From NCBI RefSeq assembly GCF_004217445.1, contig NZ_SHKX01000013.1:451031-483030 (forward strand): DNA of 32,000 nt. Reading direction: 5' to 3'. Within the stretch, counting starts at the first letter, position 1. The number at the start of each line of letters is the position of its first letter. Positions 6,293-31,475 of this stretch are shown here, piece by piece. Position numbers and translations under genes: made by a program. The notes under the pieces are model-generated. The model saw nothing but the letters and a program-made list of their open reading frames with translations. It searched no databases and was not told the DNA's origin. The DNA comes from Fluviicoccus keumensis. GTDB taxonomy: Bacteria; Pseudomonadota; Gammaproteobacteria; Pseudomonadales; Moraxellaceae.

Positions 6293-7390
6293 TTAGTCGC
6301 CGCTGACCGGAGGACGGATCTCGTCGCCCTGTTTCACCACGGTCGAGGCTTTCAGCACAATGGCGTAGCTGACCTTGTTGAAGGTGCGGAACACCATCGC
6401 CAGACCGGAACGCTCGGAAGGCAGCTGCACCAGTTCATCCTTGGTGCGGTCGCGCACAACGCCCCCGTGCTGGTAAACCGCGAAGGTGTGTCCTTGAACC
6501 ACGCCGTCGCGCTCGCCGCGGTTAACGACGATGATGCTGTTCAGACCGCCGGAACCCAGCGAGTTCATGACCTGCAGGATGCGGCCGGGCTTCACGTTCT
6601 CGGGGTTGGTCGGGTGGAAAACCGGGGTCACCGGCATGGCTTCGCTCAGCAGCAGGCGATCCTCGATACGAACTTCCTGGGTGGTGCGGGCCACGGAGAG
6701 GGTGCCGACATCGCCCTGCACAGCCGTGATGCTGCCGGCGCCGATGTCCATGGCTTCGATGCCCAGGATTTCCTGGGTGTCCGGATCCAGATAGAGATTG
6801 CCGCGGCGGTATACGCCATAGTTGTCGCCAACCGCCAATCCCTTGCCGCGCGCATAAACCTGTTCGCCGGCGCCGGCGATGATGCGGTGACCCAGACCGG
6901 CCAGCACATAGGGAGCGCGTTCGAAGTCTTCCGGCCCGACCACGCGGCTGCCGGACAGGAAGGCGCGGATGGCCTGCAGCGGCACGGCGGGAATGGCCAC
7001 GCTCATCGGTTCGGAACGGATTTGCGGCAACAGCTTGCCGGAGTCGCCGTCAACACGGCCGGTCGCCTTGTTGGTCAGGCGCTGCGCCACATCCGCGCAC
7101 CCGCCGCCGGTATCCACCGCGACCACGTTACGGTCCTGGATACGGCACAGCACCAGCTTGTCGCCGGGATAGATCAGGTGGGGATTGCGCACCTGCGGGT
7201 TCACTTCCCAGATTTCCGGCCAGCGCCACGGATCCTTCAGGTATCGGTTGGAAATGTCCCACAGGGTGTCGCCCTTCTGGACCGTGTAGCGCTCAGGCGC
7301 CGTGTCCTTGACATCGACAGGCTTGGGGCTGGCAGCCATGGCGCTACCGGCCAGCAGGCCGGCAACGAGTAATAGAACCGGTTTTTTCAT
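6293..7390 (-). CDS. LysM peptidoglycan-binding protein, TsaP-like by position
   Basis: I prefer the ATG at 7390 (MKKPVLLLVAGLLAGSAMA signal peptide) over the TTG at 7396. LysM motif: YTVQKGDTLWDISNRYLKDPWRWPEIWEVNPQVRNPHLIYPGDKL. It occupies the slot between dprA and def where Pseudomonas/Neisseria carry the LysM protein TsaP (recalled synteny). Confidence 0.8.
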   Translation of the reverse strand: MKKPVLLLVAGLLAGSAMAASPKPVDVKDTAPERYTVQKGDTLWDISNRYLKDPWRWPEIWEVNPQVRNPHLIYPGDKLVLCRIQDRNVVAVDTGGGCADVAQRLTNKATGRVDGDSGKLLPQIRSEPMSVAIPAVPLQAIRAFLSGSRVVGPEDFERAPYVLAGLGHRIIAGAGEQVYARGKGLAVGDNYGVYRRGNLYLDPDTQEILGIEAMDIGAGSITAVQGDVGTLSVARTTQEVRIEDRLLLSEAMPVTPVFHPTNPENVKPGRILQVMNSLGSGGLNSIIVVNRGERDGVVQGHTFAVYQHGGVVRDRTKDELVQLPSERSGLAMVFRTFNKVSYAIVLKASTVVKQGDEIRPPVSGD

Positions 7391-17293: not shown

Positions 17294-17896
17294 ATGCCCC
17301 GTCCCCGCCTGCAAGCCGACAGCGACCTGCTCAGCCAGTCGATGCAACTTTTCTGGCGGAAAGGCTACGCCAACACCGCCCTGCGCGACCTGGAAGAAGC
17401 CCTGGGCCTAAAGGCGCCCGCCCTCTACCACCGCTTCGGCAACAAGGACGGCCTGTTCCGCGCCACGCTGGAACACTATCTGGAACGCATCGTCGGCCGC
17501 CGCATCAGCCGCTACCTGGAAGACCCGGACGCCCTGCACGGCCTGCGCCGATTCTTCGAGACCACCTACGACTACCTCGACGCCGACCACCCGCCGCTGG
17601 CCTGTCTGATGGTCAACACCGCCGCCGAATTCGGCGCCCGCGACCCGGCGGTGCAGACCATCCTGCAACGCAGCCACGCCCGCCTGCGCGCCGCCTTCCT
17701 CGCCAATCTGGCCCGCCTGCGCGATAGCGGCCGCCTGCGCCCGGACACCCACCTGGACGACCTCGCCGACACCCTCTACCTCTGCCTGCAGGGGTTGCTG
17801 GTGGGCAGCAAGGCCGACCCCGACAAGGCCCGCCTCGACCGTCAGGTGGGCCTGATCCTCGCACTGTTGCCCCTTGTTCCCGCCACCCCGGAGTAA
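17294..17896 (+). CDS. TetR/AcrR-family transcriptional regulator
   Basis: The start ATG 17294 gives a 200-aa protein. N-terminal HTH: LLSQSMQLFWRKGYANTALRDLEEALGLKAPALYHRFGNKDGLF. The tracked start 17078 crosses the terminator and operator, so I rejected it. Confidence 0.88.
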   Translation: MPRPRLQADSDLLSQSMQLFWRKGYANTALRDLEEALGLKAPALYHRFGNKDGLFRATLEHYLERIVGRRISRYLEDPDALHGLRRFFETTYDYLDADHPPLACLMVNTAAEFGARDPAVQTILQRSHARLRAAFLANLARLRDSGRLRPDTHLDDLADTLYLCLQGLLVGSKADPDKARLDRQVGLILALLPLVPATPE

Positions 17897-25616: not shown

Positions 25617-26567
25617 TCAGGAAACCGGCCGGGGCTGAAACAAGACCCGCAGCCACTCCCGCAACAGGGCGGCGCGGTTGATCAGCAGGGAACCGAAAAT
25701 CAGCGAGCAGCCCGCCAGCTGCACGCCGCCCATGGTTTCCCCCAGCCAGGCCACCGCCAGCAGCGCCACCCACACCGGCTCCACCACCATGATCACCACG
25801 CCATGCGTATGGCCGGACAGGCTTTGCGCGTGCGTCTGCAACAGGAAGCGCATGGCGGTGCCGATCACGGCGCTGGCCGCGATCCAGCCGCCCATGGCCG
25901 GGGTGAAATGACCGAACACGGGCGTCCAGGCCTCGAAGGCCAGCGACAGGACGCCGGACACCAGGCCCACCATGGCCAGCACCACCGAGGTCAAGGCAAT
26001 GGCGGGCACGCCGGGAACGTGCTTGTGGCTGCCGTCCGGACGGCGATGCTGGCGGGCGTTGGCCGCCTGCATGTTCAAACGGAAAAACAGGGCGAACAGC
26101 ACGGCGGAGGTGACGTAGAACACCTGCCCCGCCTCGGGACGGAAACCGTGGCGCAGGGACAGCAGGCCGAGGCCCGCGGCCGCCACCGGCAGCGCAATCC
26201 ACGTACTGCGCGGCGGTCGCTCGCCGAAGAACAGCCGCCCCATCACCGGCACCAGCACTACGCCCAGACTGGTGAGGAACGCGCCCTCGCCGACGTGACT
26301 GCCGGTGAAGATGCCCATGACCCAACAGCTCATGGCCACCGCGAATACCAGTCCGACCCCGATGCTGCGGCGCAGGGCATGACGATCCAGACTGCGCAGG
26401 GTGCGGTGGCCGATGGCGGCCAGCAACGCCGACGCCAGCAGGAAGCGCAGGCACATGAACAGCAGCGGCGGCATCAGCAGCACCGCCTCGCGCGACATGA
26501 TCCAGCTGACGGCGGCCAGCAGGGTGACGCCGACGAGCATGAGGTCGGATTTGGCGGCGGGGGTCAT
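25617..26567 (-). CDS. DMT-superfamily (EamA-like) transporter
   Basis: I chose the ATG at 26567 (MTPAAKSDLMLVGVTLLAAVSWIMSRE). It is a polytopic membrane protein with two EamA-like halves. The tracked start 26693 adds a non-membrane extension. Confidence 0.8.
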   Translation of the reverse strand: MTPAAKSDLMLVGVTLLAAVSWIMSREAVLLMPPLLFMCLRFLLASALLAAIGHRTLRSLDRHALRRSIGVGLVFAVAMSCWVMGIFTGSHVGEGAFLTSLGVVLVPVMGRLFFGERPPRSTWIALPVAAAGLGLLSLRHGFRPEAGQVFYVTSAVLFALFFRLNMQAANARQHRRPDGSHKHVPGVPAIALTSVVLAMVGLVSGVLSLAFEAWTPVFGHFTPAMGGWIAASAVIGTAMRFLLQTHAQSLSGHTHGVVIMVVEPVWVALLAVAWLGETMGGVQLAGCSLIFGSLLINRAALLREWLRVLFQPRPVS

Positions 26568-26728
26568 GGGATAGGGCACCGGCACGGACGGGCTGCCATT
26601 GTGCGGTATCCGTGCGGGAAAATCATCGAGACGTTGGGAGGGGGGAGCCTGGCTTAGCCGGACAAACCGTACATTCAGCGATGAAGGGCGCACGCAGTGC
26701 GTCCCTACGGGATTGCCGGGAGTTGAAG

Positions 26729-26757
26729 TTGACCGGGTTGGCGGGGGCTGCTAGCGT
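26729..26757 (+). promoter_or_regulatory. Promoter-like TTGACC-N17-TAGCGT inside repeat copy 1
   Basis: TTGACC at 26729-26734 and TAGCGT at 26752-26757. The same arrangement is conserved in copy 2 (TTGACG 30239-30244, N18, TAGCTT 30263-30268). The -10 is weak, so this is a hypothesis only. Confidence 0.3.
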
Positions 26758-26786
26758 TGTTGCATTCCGTCCCATGGATTTAGTTC

Positions 26787-26904
26787 GCCTAACAAGGTGA
26801 GGCTTCCTGCCAAGCAGCTAATTTTAAAGGCAAATTATGGGGACTCATTCCTGTTTAGGCGAACGGTTTGATATGCGAACTCTGTCGCCGAAATATAGTT
26901 GGGC
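26787..26904 (+). other. attC site (long type, 118 bp), left-most in the array
   Basis: Inverse core GCCTAAC at 26787-26793 and core GTTGGGC at 26898-26904. It contains an internal imperfect inverted repeat TTCGCCTAACA / TGTTTAGGCGAA. I could not resolve the L boxes by hand. Confidence 0.6.
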
Positions 26905-27180
26905 ACCAAAATCGTGGATGTTGATGAAATAGCTCTGTTCGAAAATCTACTTGATTCGTTTGACAGACTTTACGATCAAGAATCGAGTGTTGTAGACATT
27001 TATGCGCTTCTGTTTGCCACAACCAAGGCACTACCTAATTCATCGTTTGCAGTACTCTTAAACACCACTACATCCGAACTTTTGAAAATTGTTCGATCTG
27101 GCTGCTCAGTCGAAGAGCAAAATAGCATTGTGCTTGATATTGTTCAGCCACTTCGCGAGGTAATCGCTGCTGTTGTTTAA
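26899..27180 (+). CDS. Cassette 1 ORF: small acidic helical protein, unknown function
   Basis: This is the only sizeable ORF in the 469-bp cassette (26899-27367) and shares the array's orientation. The start is uncertain (TTG 26899 inside the core, or GTG 26914) and there is no SD. I recognised no family. Confidence 0.45.
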   Translation: MGTKIVDVDEIALFENLLDSFDRLYDQESSVVDIYALLFATTKALPNSSFAVLLNTTTSELLKIVRSGCSVEEQNSIVLDIVQPLREVIAAVV

Positions 27181-27248: not shown

Positions 27249-27373
27249 GCCCAACTTTGCGCTCAAGTGGGATAACGCCCCAGCCACTTATGGGGCATTT
27301 TTTGATGGTTCTGAGGTACGTCTCAGATTTTATTTTGCTGTGGGGCGTTACCCCTTAGCGCCGGTAGTTAGGG
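27249..27373 (+). other. attC site of cassette 1 (125 bp)
   Basis: R'' is GCCCAAC at 27249-27255. L'' GCGCTCAAG (27259-27267) pairs with L' CTTAGCGC (27354-27361), leaving one bulged base. The stem continues GGG/CCC and TAACGCCCC (27273-27281) / GGGGCGTTA (27342-27350). Apical hairpin TCTGAG/CTCAGA is at 27310-27327. R' is GTTAGGG at 27367-27373. Confidence 0.8.
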
Positions 27374-27379
27374 CTAAAC

Positions 27380-27871
27380 ATGATCAAAGCCATCAGATTT
27401 GCAATATTTATTGGGGTTTCTATGAGCTCAAATGCAAATGAAATATTTATCCACTCTCACAATCCCACCTCCAATCGATTCGCCATACTAGAGGATAATG
27501 AAAGCATTGCTTTTCTTTATCTAACGGAAGTCGGAACTCAACGCCCCATCAAAGATGCCGTTGCCTACTCTCGCCATCCCCTCGCTCTGAAAGTCGATTG
27601 GGAAAAAATCAAAGAGAAGGGCGATACCCCGCCACTATCAAAAGATGTTGCAAGTTCAGAGGCAGTTATTGCAAACCCTTCAGAGGTTGAGTTTTCTTTT
27701 AAATGGTCATCTGATGGTAACGCCGTAGCATTACTCCGAAATGGAAAACCGATTGCATTTGCTTCAGCCTCAGAAAAATATGGCTTTTCTAAAGCCATAT
27801 CAAAGCCCAGCCCACTAGCAAACGCTTGGGATCAAGGGCTTTATGAAGTTACATTTGGAGAGCAGCCCTAA
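27380..27871 (+). CDS. Cassette 2 ORF: unknown protein, possibly DUF2251-like
   Basis: 163 aa, or 149 aa from the ATG at 27422. The pattern FAILEDNESIAFLYL ... KWSSDGNAVALLRNGKPIAF resembles my recollection of DUF2251 proteins (vFEDDGetGYfY ... Ws.dG.kaaLlinG). The stop TAA lies inside the attC inverse core. Confidence 0.6.
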   Translation: MIKAIRFAIFIGVSMSSNANEIFIHSHNPTSNRFAILEDNESIAFLYLTEVGTQRPIKDAVAYSRHPLALKVDWEKIKEKGDTPPLSKDVASSEAVIANPSEVEFSFKWSSDGNAVALLRNGKPIAFASASEKYGFSKAISKPSPLANAWDQGLYEVTFGEQP

Positions 27872-27945
27872 CTAGTGGTTCGTTCACATCGTTCGCTGCG
27901 CTCACTGGGACGGGCTAAAGCCCACTCCTTAAGCAACCGTTAGAG
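27865..27945 (+). other. attC site of cassette 2 (81 bp)
   Basis: Inverse core GCCCTAAC is at 27865-27872 and core GTTAGAG at 27939-27945. GGTTCGTT and AAGCAACC are partially complementary L-like boxes. Central hairpin GGGC-TAAA-GCCC is at 27912-27923. Confidence 0.75.
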
Positions 27946-28375: not shown

Positions 28376-28440
28376 GCTCTAACCATTCGCGGCAGGTGCG
28401 GCGGTCCTGACGGGCCGCGAGCTGGGCTCATTCGTTAGGT
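28376..28440 (+). other. attC site of cassette 3 (65 bp, classical short type)
   Basis: GCTCTAAC-CATTCG...GCCGCGAGCTGGGCTCATTC-GTTAGGT. The layout closely parallels the aadA-type attC as I recall it (GTCTAACAATTCG...CTCAAGCGTTAGAT). Core GTTAGGT at 28434-28440 fits GTTRRRY. Confidence 0.8.
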
Positions 28441-28531
28441 ACGGACAGGAACGGAACTCACGAACAGCCCCGGAAAGCTCAGGCCTGCTTGGCTACTTCT
28501 GGTCCCTGCCCCAGTTTTTCATCTTCAAACC

Positions 28532-30061
28532 TTAGCCCCCGTCCAAGCTGTCAAACGCCCACCAGCATGAACCGCCGCCCCCAAACGTATGCCGTGTCTT
28601 CCGGTCAAAATGGAACTCGCCCTGACAGGCCCGCCCTCTTTCCAGCGCACCACGCAGTTCATCCCACTGCCCCAGCAAATCCTTGTTCTTCGCCCACTCG
28701 GGGGGATTCGCGTATTTGATCCGCAACTTGTACCGGAACGCATCTCCTTCCGTGTCATAGGGGTCATCATTGATCAGCTGCGCATCCACAATATCGACCG
28801 AAGCAACCCCCAAGGGCAGACAATCCGGGCGTTTGGGATCGACCGCGGTTGCATAGCCTGCCGTCAGCTCAAAGATATCGGCCTTTTGGCGCCGGCCATC
28901 TTCAAGCTGAATGTCTTGTCCAGCCCTCCTTTGCATCACCCCCAGGCGTTCAAGTAATTCGAGATAGGGTATCGTCTTGCGGGCAACCGGATCCCAGCCT
29001 GATCGCCCCTTGGACGGGAAAATGGCCACGGCGTAGTGGTCCGACTCGCCTTCAAACAGCGATTTGTCCACCGGCAAGTTTCCCCTGCCCGGCAGGGCCA
29101 GACAGGTACCGGGCCACTGACCAGCCTTGCCATGACCATGCATCTCCGCCAGCAGACGTCGAATTTCATCCACCGTCGGTGGTGCAAAGGCTTTCAGGGC
29201 CTCCATCTTGCGGATACGCAGGGCAGCCAGCCGCGACAGCATCGCTTCGTATTCGGCCCGGCCGCCATCCTTTTGCGTGGCATCCACATAAGCATCCTTG
29301 TAATCGCGGCTGTAAACCGTAGGGGCGCGACCACACGGCCCTTGCCCATCCCGGACCAAGTGCCGACACTCAACCCAGGATTTGTTTTGACGAACCAACT
29401 GAACCTTGAACATCTGCCCGGCACTGTTCTTTTCGATTTCCGGGAAAGCCGCCAGCAGCGCGGGATTTCTTACCCATGCGGATTCTGCTGATGTTGCATC
29501 CAGCCCGATCCGGGCCGTGACCTCGTAAAACGGCTGGCTTTGCCCTGCCTGACTGCCCGGCGGATGCGGAGTGATTTGATCGATGCCGAGGTAATGTGGC
29601 TGTCCGTATTCGAAACAGCTGGCATTGCGGTTCGGACCCGATTTCAGCCAGCCCGACTCAGACAGCCGGTAACGGATAGCCGGGCGACCGTTCAGGGTCA
29701 ATGTCAGTTTTTCCAGCAAACCGGCCTGGCTCAGTGCATCCAGTTTCCGCAATTGCTCCTGACGGGGAGCAGACTCCGGAGCATCGGTATAGAAATCCAT
29801 GGACCACGCCAACGGTTCACGGGTCTTCGTGCCCACATCCGGAGCAGGATAGGACGGCAGGGAAAGACACAACCGTTTTCCTTGCTCGCCCCCGGAATGC
29901 TGTTCCCAAAGGGCGCGGACTACAGGATCGAAATTGGCGGCCGTGGGTTGGTTTTCCTGCCAGTGGTTGTAGGCATACACGCCGGCTGTCAGTGTCAGAC
30001 CCAATCCGAGGACTGCCGCAACTGACGGGAAAATGCGACGTTTACTGAAATTTAAATGCAT
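28532..30061 (-). CDS. Exported / membrane-anchored Cys-containing protein of unknown function, reverse-oriented in the array
   Basis: 509 aa. The N-terminus KRR + IFPSVAAVLGLGLTLTAGVYAY is a signal peptide or signal anchor. There are eight Cys. An apparent two-fold internal repeat is anchored on CLxLP, L(D/E)xLxxxG(L/V)(L/M), (Y/F)xL(S/T)xxG(W/Y) and C(F/L)xxG. G+C (about 52-63% on sampled lines) is intermediate between the other cassettes and the host. Confidence 0.75.
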   Translation of the reverse strand: MHLNFSKRRIFPSVAAVLGLGLTLTAGVYAYNHWQENQPTAANFDPVVRALWEQHSGGEQGKRLCLSLPSYPAPDVGTKTREPLAWSMDFYTDAPESAPRQEQLRKLDALSQAGLLEKLTLTLNGRPAIRYRLSESGWLKSGPNRNASCFEYGQPHYLGIDQITPHPPGSQAGQSQPFYEVTARIGLDATSAESAWVRNPALLAAFPEIEKNSAGQMFKVQLVRQNKSWVECRHLVRDGQGPCGRAPTVYSRDYKDAYVDATQKDGGRAEYEAMLSRLAALRIRKMEALKAFAPPTVDEIRRLLAEMHGHGKAGQWPGTCLALPGRGNLPVDKSLFEGESDHYAVAIFPSKGRSGWDPVARKTIPYLELLERLGVMQRRAGQDIQLEDGRRQKADIFELTAGYATAVDPKRPDCLPLGVASVDIVDAQLINDDPYDTEGDAFRYKLRIKYANPPEWAKNKDLLGQWDELRGALERGRACQGEFHFDRKTRHTFGGGGSCWWAFDSLDGG

Positions 30062-30231
30062 GTGAAATCCGTTCTTATGATTTTCGGCAAGTCGGCTAGC
30101 GCGACCCTTGCGAATGTTATGGCTGTCCTAGGCAAACGACAAGCGTGGCCGTTTGGAAGATTTTCCCCTTGGAGGCTGTAGTCCCTTAGCCGGGGCGGAA
30201 TCAGAAATAGGGGCCAGTCCCCCTGTGTTTA

Positions 30232-30420
30232 GCTTAGGTTGACGGAGGGTGGCGCGCGCTGCTAGCTTTCAGGAACTTCATCCTATGGGTTTAGTTCGCC
30301 TAACAAGGTGAGGCTTCCTGACAAGCGGCTAATTTGAAAGGCAAATGACTCTGACTCATTGCTGTTTAGGCGAATGGATTGTTATGCAAACTCTGTCGCC
30401 GAAATATAGTTAGGCATCAA
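30232..30420 (+). repeat. Copy 2 of the ~190-bp module (promoter-like box + long attC)
   Basis: See copy 1: 30292-30420 matches 26781-26909 at 114/129 positions. Differences cluster in an 8-nt block (TATGGGGA versus GACTCTGA). Confidence 0.85.
30298..30415 (+). other. attC site (long type, 118 bp) closing the 2-kb unit
   Basis: Inverse core GCCTAAC (30298-30304) is perfectly complementary to core GTTAGGC (30409-30415). It has the same architecture as 26787-26904. Confidence 0.6.
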
Positions 30421-30432
30421 GGGAGACGAACA

Positions 30433-30801
30433 GTGCCGCAAACAGTCATTCCGCAACTACGCATCACAAACTCAGAACAAAGCCTTGGCTTCTATGTCAA
30501 CGGCCTCGGCTTCAAGATTGACTGGCAGCACCGATTCGGTCCCCGCTACCCGCTTTTTGTTCAACTCACGAGGCAAGGCCAAACGATCTTTCTGACAGAG
30601 CATATGGGCGACTGTGAAGTCGGAGGCGCCGTCTACTTCATCGTCCAAGATGCCGGACACACTTTGTCCGAGTTTGAGCAACATGGTGTCGTTGCCACCA
30701 ACCCACTGTCAAATACATCGTGGGGTACAAGCGAATTTCTGCTGACCGATCCGGACGGCAACCGTTTGCGCTTTGCCTCTGAACTTCAGCAACAAACATG
30801 A
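30433..30801 (+). CDS. Cassette ORF: glyoxalase / bleomycin-resistance (VOC) family protein
   Basis: GTG 30433 lies 6 nt after AAGGGAGA and inside the cassette; the tracked TTG 30379 would start inside the preceding attC. IPQLRITNSEQSLGFYVNGLGF ... LLTDPDGNRLRF fits the VOC/Ble-like pattern. 122 aa. Confidence 0.8.
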   Translation: MPQTVIPQLRITNSEQSLGFYVNGLGFKIDWQHRFGPRYPLFVQLTRQGQTIFLTEHMGDCEVGGAVYFIVQDAGHTLSEFEQHGVVATNPLSNTSWGTSEFLLTDPDGNRLRFASELQQQT

Positions 30802-30828: not shown

Positions 30829-30848
30829 GCCTAACCTGGGCGTTTTAG
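30829..30848 (+). other. Truncated attC remnant (inverse core only)
   Basis: CTTGCTGCCTAAC (30823-30835) is the reverse complement (12/13) of the cassette 5' end GTTAGGCATCAAG (30409-30421). Only about 25 bp remain before the next ORF, with a core-like GTTTTAG at 30842-30848. Confidence 0.5.
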
Positions 30849-30860
30849 AGGAGCCACATT

Positions 30861-31370
30861 TTGCTCGATCTTGATGATCCTCGTTGGTACGAGCTCAAAC
30901 ATGCTTATGGCACGGCTGCGGATATCCCTGCGTTGTTAAAACAACTCGCCGATCTACCGTCCTCCGAAAACGACAACGAGCCTTGGTTCTCCATCTGGAG
31001 CGCATTGGCGCATCAAGGCGACGTCTACACAGCTTCTTTCGCTGCCGTGCCACACGTAATAGAGGCGCTCGCCTCTGCCCCGTTAAAAGCCGATTTCTCC
31101 TATTTTCAATTTCCGGCCTGGGTTGAAGTCTGCCGCACCAAGAAGAGCGTTTCGGTTCCTGAAGACATTGCCCCAGCCTACTTTGAGTCCTTGTCTCGGC
31201 TGCCCTCGCTTGTGGGTGCAGCAGCCGCGCGCCCATGGGACGAAGGGTTTCTATGTTGCGCTCTTTCAGCGGTTGCCGCGGCGAAAGGGCAGCCCTCAGT
31301 TGCCGAAGCAGTGTTGGAGCTTTCGCCCGAGGTGGCCGGCGAGTTCATGGAGTGGTTCTATGAACGCTGA
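30861..31370 (+). CDS. Helical protein of unknown function (last ORF of the array)
   Basis: TTG start lies 7 nt after AGAGGAG (30847-30853). 169 aa. The N-terminal block DDPRWYELKHAYGTAADIPALLKQL recalls uncharacterised HEAT-like or immunity-like proteins, but I cannot name a family. Confidence 0.65.
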   Translation: MLDLDDPRWYELKHAYGTAADIPALLKQLADLPSSENDNEPWFSIWSALAHQGDVYTASFAAVPHVIEALASAPLKADFSYFQFPAWVEVCRTKKSVSVPEDIAPAYFESLSRLPSLVGAAAARPWDEGFLCCALSAVAAAKGQPSVAEAVLELSPEVAGEFMEWFYER

Positions 31371-31475
31371 AAAGCCCAATTCTACGTTATCGCCATAAAA
31401 CAACCGGAACCAATCGGGAGGGAATAGGCACCTGTCCCCAATTTTCCCCCGACGACCCTCCGCCCTGTCAGCAGC

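Follow-up and report, generated by a model that had tools for sequence, protein, structure and literature searches.

A probable integron-type cassette with a reverse-oriented gene for an exported two-module protein in Fluviicoccus keumensis

Clusters of attC sites lacking an integron-integrase (CALIN) contain a mean of 5 attC sites each, and the cassettes that such sites delimit reach about 2 kb at the largest known, need not contain an open reading frame (ORF) and may carry a promoter of their own (Cury et al., 2016; PMC4889954). The present analysis concerns a unit of 1.86-1.98 kb in an array of five units on the Fluviicoccus keumensis chromosome, contained in a stretch of 32,000 nucleotides (contig NZ_SHKX01000013.1, positions 451,031 to 483,030 of the forward strand) that is hereafter called the window. 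An array-oriented ORF without a promoter is typical of cassettes but does not define them, since reversed, self-promoted cassettes exist; chromosomal integrons hold such cassettes, for example those encoding toxin-antitoxin systems. The unit is read here, with a probability of roughly 0.6, as an integron-type cassette in a CALIN that carries a reverse-oriented, self-transcribed and probably horizontally acquired gene for a Sec-exported protein of two modules.

The array resembles described CALINs in that its units are co-oriented, bounded by attC or attC-like sites and less than 4 kb apart on one strand, with about five sites and no intI nearby. CALIN cassettes likewise encode unknown functions, and two of the attC sites in this array are homologous to those of class 1 integrons. 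Unlike usual CALIN cassettes, the unit lies at or near the size maximum of about 2 kb, its gene is reversed, and its 3' site is a 183-nt repeated module, a putative attC with a non-canonical inner core (GTTTAGGC). Toxin-antitoxin cassettes offer a second comparison, as they too have genes antisense to the array that require a promoter of their own. Unlike them, the unit encodes a single exported protein of 509 residues rather than a small two-gene module, and this protein matched no toxin-antitoxin or defence family.

The array and the boundaries of the unit

The array occupies a low-G+C stretch at about 26.7-31.45 kb of the window, between a gene for an EamA-family transporter (25617-26693, minus strand) and a thiolase-like ORF (from 31501, minus strand). 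The units neighbouring the one under study are about 0.43-0.59 kb in size and have small, single, co-oriented ORFs, and behind each ORF lies an imperfect inverted repeat bounded by YYTAAC...GTTRRR; one of these ORFs encodes a glyoxalase/bleomycin-resistance-fold protein (Pfam). The G+C content is 57.5% for the unit (58.2% for its ORF), compared with 49.7% elsewhere in the array and 65.3% in the 26.7 kb of upstream chromosome. The original prediction, made from the DNA letters alone, had described the unit as markedly longer than its neighbours and of intermediate G+C content, and both descriptions hold.

Two of the inverted repeats, attC#3 (27866-27945) and attC#4 (28377-28440, plus strand; CTCTAAC...GTTAGGT), match attC sites between class 1 integron cassettes at 83-86% identity over 60-78 nt. 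The homologue of attC#3 is on the P. aeruginosa plasmid CP080283, in the stretch that separates the first cassette of a class 1 integron, adjoining intI1, from the second; that first cassette is a hypothetical one. A similar site on pPUV-3 also aligns with attC#3. The site attC#4, which belongs to the cassette preceding the unit, shares about 83% identity across some 60 nt with the attC found behind blaOXA-10-family genes (OXA-101, OXA-19 and OXA-932) in class 1 integrons. Its likeness to these plasmids stops at GTTAG, that is, at the crossover point, beyond which the plasmids continue with either the 3'-conserved segment or the following cassette. On a position weight matrix (PWM) that covers both attC ends and was trained on 12 class 1 attC sites, attC#4 scored 22.5 and attC#3 22.0; the maxima for block-shuffled windows were 15.8 +/- 1.7, the highest of them being 19.5. 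A cruder core-pair pattern (YYTAAC, 40-140 nt, GTTAGR), which also matches the attC sites of control integrons, matched the window only inside the array. Three further attC-like sites lie at 26783-26864, 27270-27353 and 30294-30375. Thus, the integron-type nature of the surrounding array, on which the original prediction had depended, is supported by the class 1 homology of two sites and by the PWM.

No integron-integrase accompanies these sites in the window, which extends 0.5 kb beyond the array on the downstream side: a tblastn search with IntI1 returned nothing below E=4, and a Pfam scan of the ten upstream ORFs, which are ordinary metabolic and regulatory genes, found no recombinase. Because integron-type sites (attC#3 and attC#4 by homology, together with the three attC-like sites) occur without an integrase in the window, the array is a CALIN in the definition of Cury and colleagues (PMC4889954). 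Rfam gave no match for the whole window at the gathering threshold, and none at E<=1 for positions 30050-30450.

The 5' boundary of the unit is firm and corresponds to the G|TTAGGT crossover of attC#4 at 28434|28435 (GTTAGGT at 28434-28440). Its 3' boundary falls in the attC-like module at 30238-30420 (plus strand), and the size of the unit varies with the 3' core site that is chosen. This module is the second copy of a 183-nt repeat. The first copy, previously noted as an ORF-less module, lies at 26728-26909 (plus strand) at the junction of chromosome and array, adjoining the EamA gene, and the two copies are 83.6% identical over 183 nt. Module copy 2 contains an R'' box GCCTAAC (30298-30304), the inner core GTTTAGGC (30364-30371) and an outer R' box GTTAGGC (30409-30415). 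The outer core, which reads GTTAGGC or GTTGGGC in the module copies, is located 45 nt past the inner core, just upstream of the ribosome-binding site and start of the next cassette. The 15-nt arms of copy 2 (30294-30308 and 30361-30375) are 87% complementary, as are those of copy 1 (26783-26797 and 26850-26864), and the bottom-strand DNA folds of copies 1 and 2 have z values of -3.5 and -2.1, respectively, relative to shuffles. Sites of the attC type (R''-L''...L'-R') are imperfect palindromes of 57-141 nt with extrahelical bases, and a status as attC is plausible for the module. The complementarity of 6/7 between the two ends of the unit (GTTAGGT at 28434 and GCCTAAC at 30298) is as originally described.

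A contig from a public short-read assembly (Logan contig SRR8552833_861, 3540 nt) carries the identical gene and runs out at either end within a module copy, a pattern to be expected if assembly is broken by the 183-nt repeat. Further along the array, only a stump, GCCTAAC-CTGGGC-GTTTTAGAGG, is present at 30829-30850, the expected attC place after the ORF of the glyoxalase-fold protein, which suggests a deleted or degenerate attC. The last cassette-like ORF (30861-31377; 169 residues, no Pfam match) is followed by the thiolase gene, with no attC-like site between them. Its DNA is 77% identical to a hypothetical gene on a plasmid of Nitrogeniibacter aestuarii (Rhodocyclales), located there among genes for a DNA methyltransferase and a helicase.

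The reverse-oriented gene and its protein

The only credible gene of the unit is the ORF at 28532-30061, on the minus strand of a plus-strand array and with an ATG start, as had been proposed; the overlapping plus-strand ORFs are antisense shadows without support. Its product is identical to the NCBI entry 'hypothetical protein EV700_2625' of Fluviicoccus keumensis. The possibility that the ORF is spurious was rejected, as it belongs to a conserved family. Its orientation departs from the pattern of promoterless, array-oriented, Pc-expressed cassettes. Being reversed, the gene cannot draw on an upstream cassette promoter, and transcription would therefore start in the region at 30062-30237, which contains a weak promoter-like site on the minus strand (TTGTCG-17-TAACAT, 30142-30114). 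Between this upstream region and the module lies a G+C hairpin, AGGGGCCAGTCCCCT (30207-30226), with T-rich tails on both strands, which could insulate the promoter region of the gene from transcription of the array. The flank downstream of the stop codon (28435-28531, 97 nt, minus strand) contains no T-tract terminator or other terminator-like site, and its DNA folds no more stably than shuffled sequence (z 0.22).

Codons 1-31 (29969-30061, minus strand) encode an export signal or membrane anchor that begins MHLNFSKRR; after the KRR come about 21 hydrophobic residues, and cleavage may occur at VYA|Y. This segment has the only 19-residue Kyte-Doolittle window above 1.6 in the protein, and residues 10-36 are helical in an AlphaFold2 model. 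Signal peptides, lipoboxes or lipoprotein-type signals, or anchors are found at the N-termini of the 48 family members compared, from which it follows that the body of the protein lies outside the cytoplasm. The eight cysteines noted earlier are at positions 65, 149, 232, 243, 320, 414, 479 and 499. Six of them (C65, C149, C320, C414, C479 and C499) are kept in 42-47 of the 48 members, and C232 and C243 are not conserved. The earlier claims of a signal peptide or anchor and of eight cysteines are thus borne out by hydropathy, by family N-termini and by count.

The remainder of the protein consists of two modules joined by a linker, all on the minus strand. The N-terminal module (codons 61-231, 29369-29881) contains C65 and C149, a helix (98-112), a beta-hairpin (116-133) and then a beta-sheet. 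The linker (codons 232-296, 29174-29368) is poorly conserved and partly helical and holds C232 and C243; it shows a low predicted local distance difference test (pLDDT) score at 240-260, long helices at 252-290 and alignment gaps. The C-terminal module (codons 316-505, 28547-29116) contains C320 and C414, a terminal hairpin with C479 and C499, and a near-invariant GSCWWAFDS motif. The AlphaFold2 model, which was built with a 48-sequence alignment, has a pLDDT of 89 and a predicted template modelling score of 0.84, with the same order of helices and strands in both halves. The internal duplication is real at the profile level: an hhalign profile-profile comparison of the two modules gave a probability of 97.2% and E 3.4e-11 over 150 columns, aligning exactly the motifs that had been listed in the original prediction. 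Single-sequence Smith-Waterman alignment of the two halves was at chance (z 0.46; 145/500 shuffles reach the score).

The protein had also been called an ORFan of no recognised family, and only the second half of that description survives. It had no match in Pfam, NCBIfam, PADLOC or PHROGs, nor among PDB sequences when searched with the single sequence or with the 48-member profile. Foldseek searches of the PDB and BFVD gave no match at E<=1e-3 with models at pLDDT 69 and pLDDT 89. A word-index search yielded five proteins, four of them relatives at 33-42% identity, and a second such search with the 48-member profile added none. When 1.84 billion representatives were searched exhaustively with a hidden Markov model (HMM), 182 matched at E<=1e-3, of which 72 reached E<=1e-30. 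The protein family is therefore rare, and its members are not orphans. Relatives occur mostly in Rhodocyclales-like Betaproteobacteria. Among 50 longer homologues, Pfam identified as fusion partners only RTX repeats (3), DnaJ (2) and Sel1 (1).

Weak, non-significant structural likeness to two known folds was found. As in the winged helices of PadR and HxlR, a helix is followed by a beta-hairpin in the modules (LRKLDALSQAGLLEK - hairpin - YRLSESGW). Foldseek superposed this segment locally on PadR and QsrR, pairing it with the recognition helix and wing of PadR/HxlR regulators (33-48 residues, 27-36% identity, root-mean-square deviation (rmsd) 0.7-5.7, E > 0.2), and three of the 48 family members, but not the 509-residue protein, had a weak Pfam match to PadR (best E 0.18). 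Unlike winged helix-turn-helix (wHTH) regulators, the protein holds only a partial wHTH and is exported and Cys-paired, which makes DNA binding implausible. A DNA-binding wHTH regulator was consequently rejected, the wHTH match being partial and non-significant. A helix that packs on a curved antiparallel sheet may be shared with cystatin-like and NTF2-like rolls, to which Foldseek gave weak matches (target-normalised TM-score 0.42-0.47, E 0.09-0.9, rmsd about 8 A) with no sequence signal. The near-invariant columns of the family are W, Y, F, L, G, P, C and one Asp, with no catalytic-looking set. As these columns look non-catalytic and no curated or PDB match exists, the best inference is a non-enzymatic role in the cell envelope, binding or structural.

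Homologous loci and alternative explanations

Seventeen further loci that encode homologues were compared. Their neighbours are unrelated from locus to locus and include genes for a ubiU/ubiV-like U32 peptidase, a sigma-54 activator and flavodoxin, a beta-CASP nuclease, a CoA-transferase and thiolase, and a GerE-family regulator. In three of the loci (L004, L008 and L012) the G+C content of the family gene is below that of its flanks, an indication that the gene was acquired horizontally more than once.

In four of ten independent contexts with adequate flanks, the gene-bearing segment is flanked by direct repeats of 100-185 nt with 72-84% identity. These repeats are unrelated between loci and are copies of the local target. 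The pairs are 1041-1226 / 2802-2942 in L004, 8112-8257 / 11610-11757 in L002 (the same in L003), 6808-6911 / 9760-9863 in L011 and, in the window, 26728-26909 / 30238-30420. The repeat of L004 is a ubiU-ubiV-like intergenic region with a long palindrome, and that of L011 is a coding fragment resembling glutathione S-transferase (GST). In L002 the repeat starts within the 3' end of a gene resembling NosD, and it contains a terminator-like hairpin, the loop of which has opposite orientations in the two copies. A second pair of direct repeats occurs on the L002 metagenomic contig (14755-14841 / 17297-17394, 75-88% identity, 2.5 kb apart); it encloses four small genes, one with an HNH domain, and a short-chain dehydrogenase gene contains one copy within the 3' part. 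In one lineage, a conserved gene for an N-terminally anchored protein of about 505 residues is located directly upstream of the family gene on the same strand (L002 8425-9957, L003 350-1882, L005 98-1609). This neighbour has no Pfam match, is not a paralogue of the family and is absent from the window; it is possible that it encodes a functional partner of the family protein.

In the cassette reading, the unit would begin at 28434|28435 and end in the attC-like module, at the upper end of known cassette sizes, with the reverse gene transcribed from a promoter of its own. The protein would be exported by Sec, either signal-anchored or as a cleaved periplasmic form, and would comprise two homologous alpha/beta modules of about 170 residues each, connected by a helical linker, with one conserved Cys pair per module and a third pair in the C-terminal hairpin, all presumably forming disulfides. 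An envelope binding or structural role, non-enzymatic, would suit such a protein. The gene was probably acquired horizontally and would have become part of a cassette once, or have been fused to an ORF-less cassette.

Several observations weigh against this explanation. The absence of an integrase applies to the 32-kb window. The inner core of the module is non-canonical, and the class-1-trained PWM misses the module (score 9.9, null mean 15.8). No further module copy or empty site was found in collections of plasmids, genomes, metagenomes and viral contigs, among which the F. keumensis genome was not represented. A promoter had been expected in 30062-30297; a consensus scan of this region found no consensus sigma-70 promoter, and the weak site described above is the only promoter-like sequence there. 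Neither an attC core-site pair nor an IntI-like sequence occurs in any of the 17 loci with homologues. The family is thus not generally cassette-borne, and its capture in Fluviicoccus looks like a single event; the settings of the homologues are largely of the kind, chromosomal and unrelated to integrons, that the original prediction had named as counting against it. Finally, the functional inference rests on an absence of evidence.

That the region is not related to integrons at all, its inverted repeats being terminators or repetitive extragenic palindromic (REP)-like elements and its low-G+C stretch an ordinary genomic islet, is hardly credible. The lack of an integrase in the window would agree with this, as would the folds of attC#3 and attC#4, which are no better than shuffles (z 0.18 and -1.37), and the 183-nt module, which is unlike class 1 attC ends. 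It is opposed by the likeness of two sites to class 1 integron attC sites, which ends at the core sites, by stop codons that overlap or abut the R'' boxes, and by neighbouring ORFs that are single and co-oriented. The inverted repeats as mere terminators were rejected because two of them have attC homology. A more serious, if still unlikely, alternative divides the unit into two cassettes: one of 1.8 kb (28435 to about 30233-30238), with the reverse gene and a degenerate attC at 30127-30240, and after it an ORF-less mini-cassette formed by the 183-nt module. Both TTAGGT strings, at 28435 and 30234, would then be the TTRRRY halves of two crossover sites in succession. Cassettes need not contain an ORF (PMC4889954), TTAGGT occurs at these two places only on the plus strand of the 32 kb, the homology with module copy 1 sets in at 30238, 3-4 nt past the second TTAGGT, and both module copies open with G|TTGAC (26728 and 30238). 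The candidate site is an imperfect inverted repeat on the plus strand, CCTAGGCAAAC...GTTTAGCTTAGG, and could be the degenerate attC of the 1.8-kb block; in the bottom-strand minimum-free-energy structure of 30115-30250, CCTAGGCAAACGACAAG pairs with CTGTGTTTAGCTTAGG, so that both ends of the repeat are joined in a bulged, imperfect, attC-like terminal inverted repeat. Its fold energy is, however, no better than shuffles (z 0.31), TTAGGT is preceded by C in place of the canonical G, GGCAAAC as the putative R'' is a poor match to the consensus, and the candidate is not among the top PWM candidates. The division into two cassettes is kept live because the second TTAGGT adjoins the module homology and the preceding inverted repeat pairs end to end.

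The two remaining alternatives dispense with integron recombination for the gene itself. In one, a foreign 1.8-kb block was inserted by a non-integron route into an older copy of the ORF-less module, duplicating or reusing an 11-nt target, TTAGGT..ACGGA. The original prediction had raised such an insertion or fusion on account of two bracketing strings, TTAGGT-ACGGA at 28435-28445 and TTAGGT-TG-ACGGA at 30234-30246. The strings are present exactly there, and the second copy of the ORF-less module has been found at 30238-30420, so that the unit does consist of a 1.8-kb block and a copy of the module. At 58%, the G+C content of the block departs from that of both array and chromosome; in other genomes the homologous gene stands alone as a G+C-poor insertion, and in L004, L002/L003 and L011 the inserted segment is flanked by direct repeats of 100-185 nt. 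The bracket itself is poor evidence: when the left junction is locally aligned with 30062-30297, 22.5% of dinucleotide shuffles do as well as the observed match of 11/13, which spans a 2-nt gap (p about 0.23). Six of its 11 bases are the TTRRRY half expected of an attC core, and TGACGGA is part of the module itself, copy 1 of which reads TTGACCGG. The bracket is consequently better read, from its composition, as half of an attC core site than as a target duplication, and a transposon-like duplication is unlikely. As the block also lacks a transposase, an integrase and terminal inverted repeats, and no empty site emerged from the plasmid, genome, metagenome and viral-contig searches, insertion by this route is improbable. 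The other alternative combines two novelties, an extracytoplasmic domain not described before and without a solved fold relative, and a gene that is itself mobile by an undescribed, integron-integrase-independent insertion. The domain would be a tandem module of about 170 residues in which a winged-helix-like helix-hairpin is fused to a beta-sheet and locked by a disulfide. The insertion mechanism could be what the direct repeats around the gene-bearing segment in four of the ten contexts reflect. As a joint proposition, this too must be considered a long shot.

Implications for cassette biology and the protein family

Read as a cassette, the unit would bring together a size at the known limit, a reversed gene and expression from its own promoter within a CALIN of environmental origin, a combination that is unusual but not unprecedented. 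The attC likeness ties an environmental freshwater bacterium to the pool that supplies the recombination sites of clinical cassettes, including the attC of the blaOXA-10 family, and the identity of 83-86% could bear on the origin of clinical cassettes or of their recombination sites. Neither the integron point nor the annotation point overturns current understanding. For the protein, a rare exported family of about 180 clusters has been delimited, and its confident predicted structure, together with the lack of a curated family or solved relative, marks it out as a candidate new domain entry and a subject for experiments.

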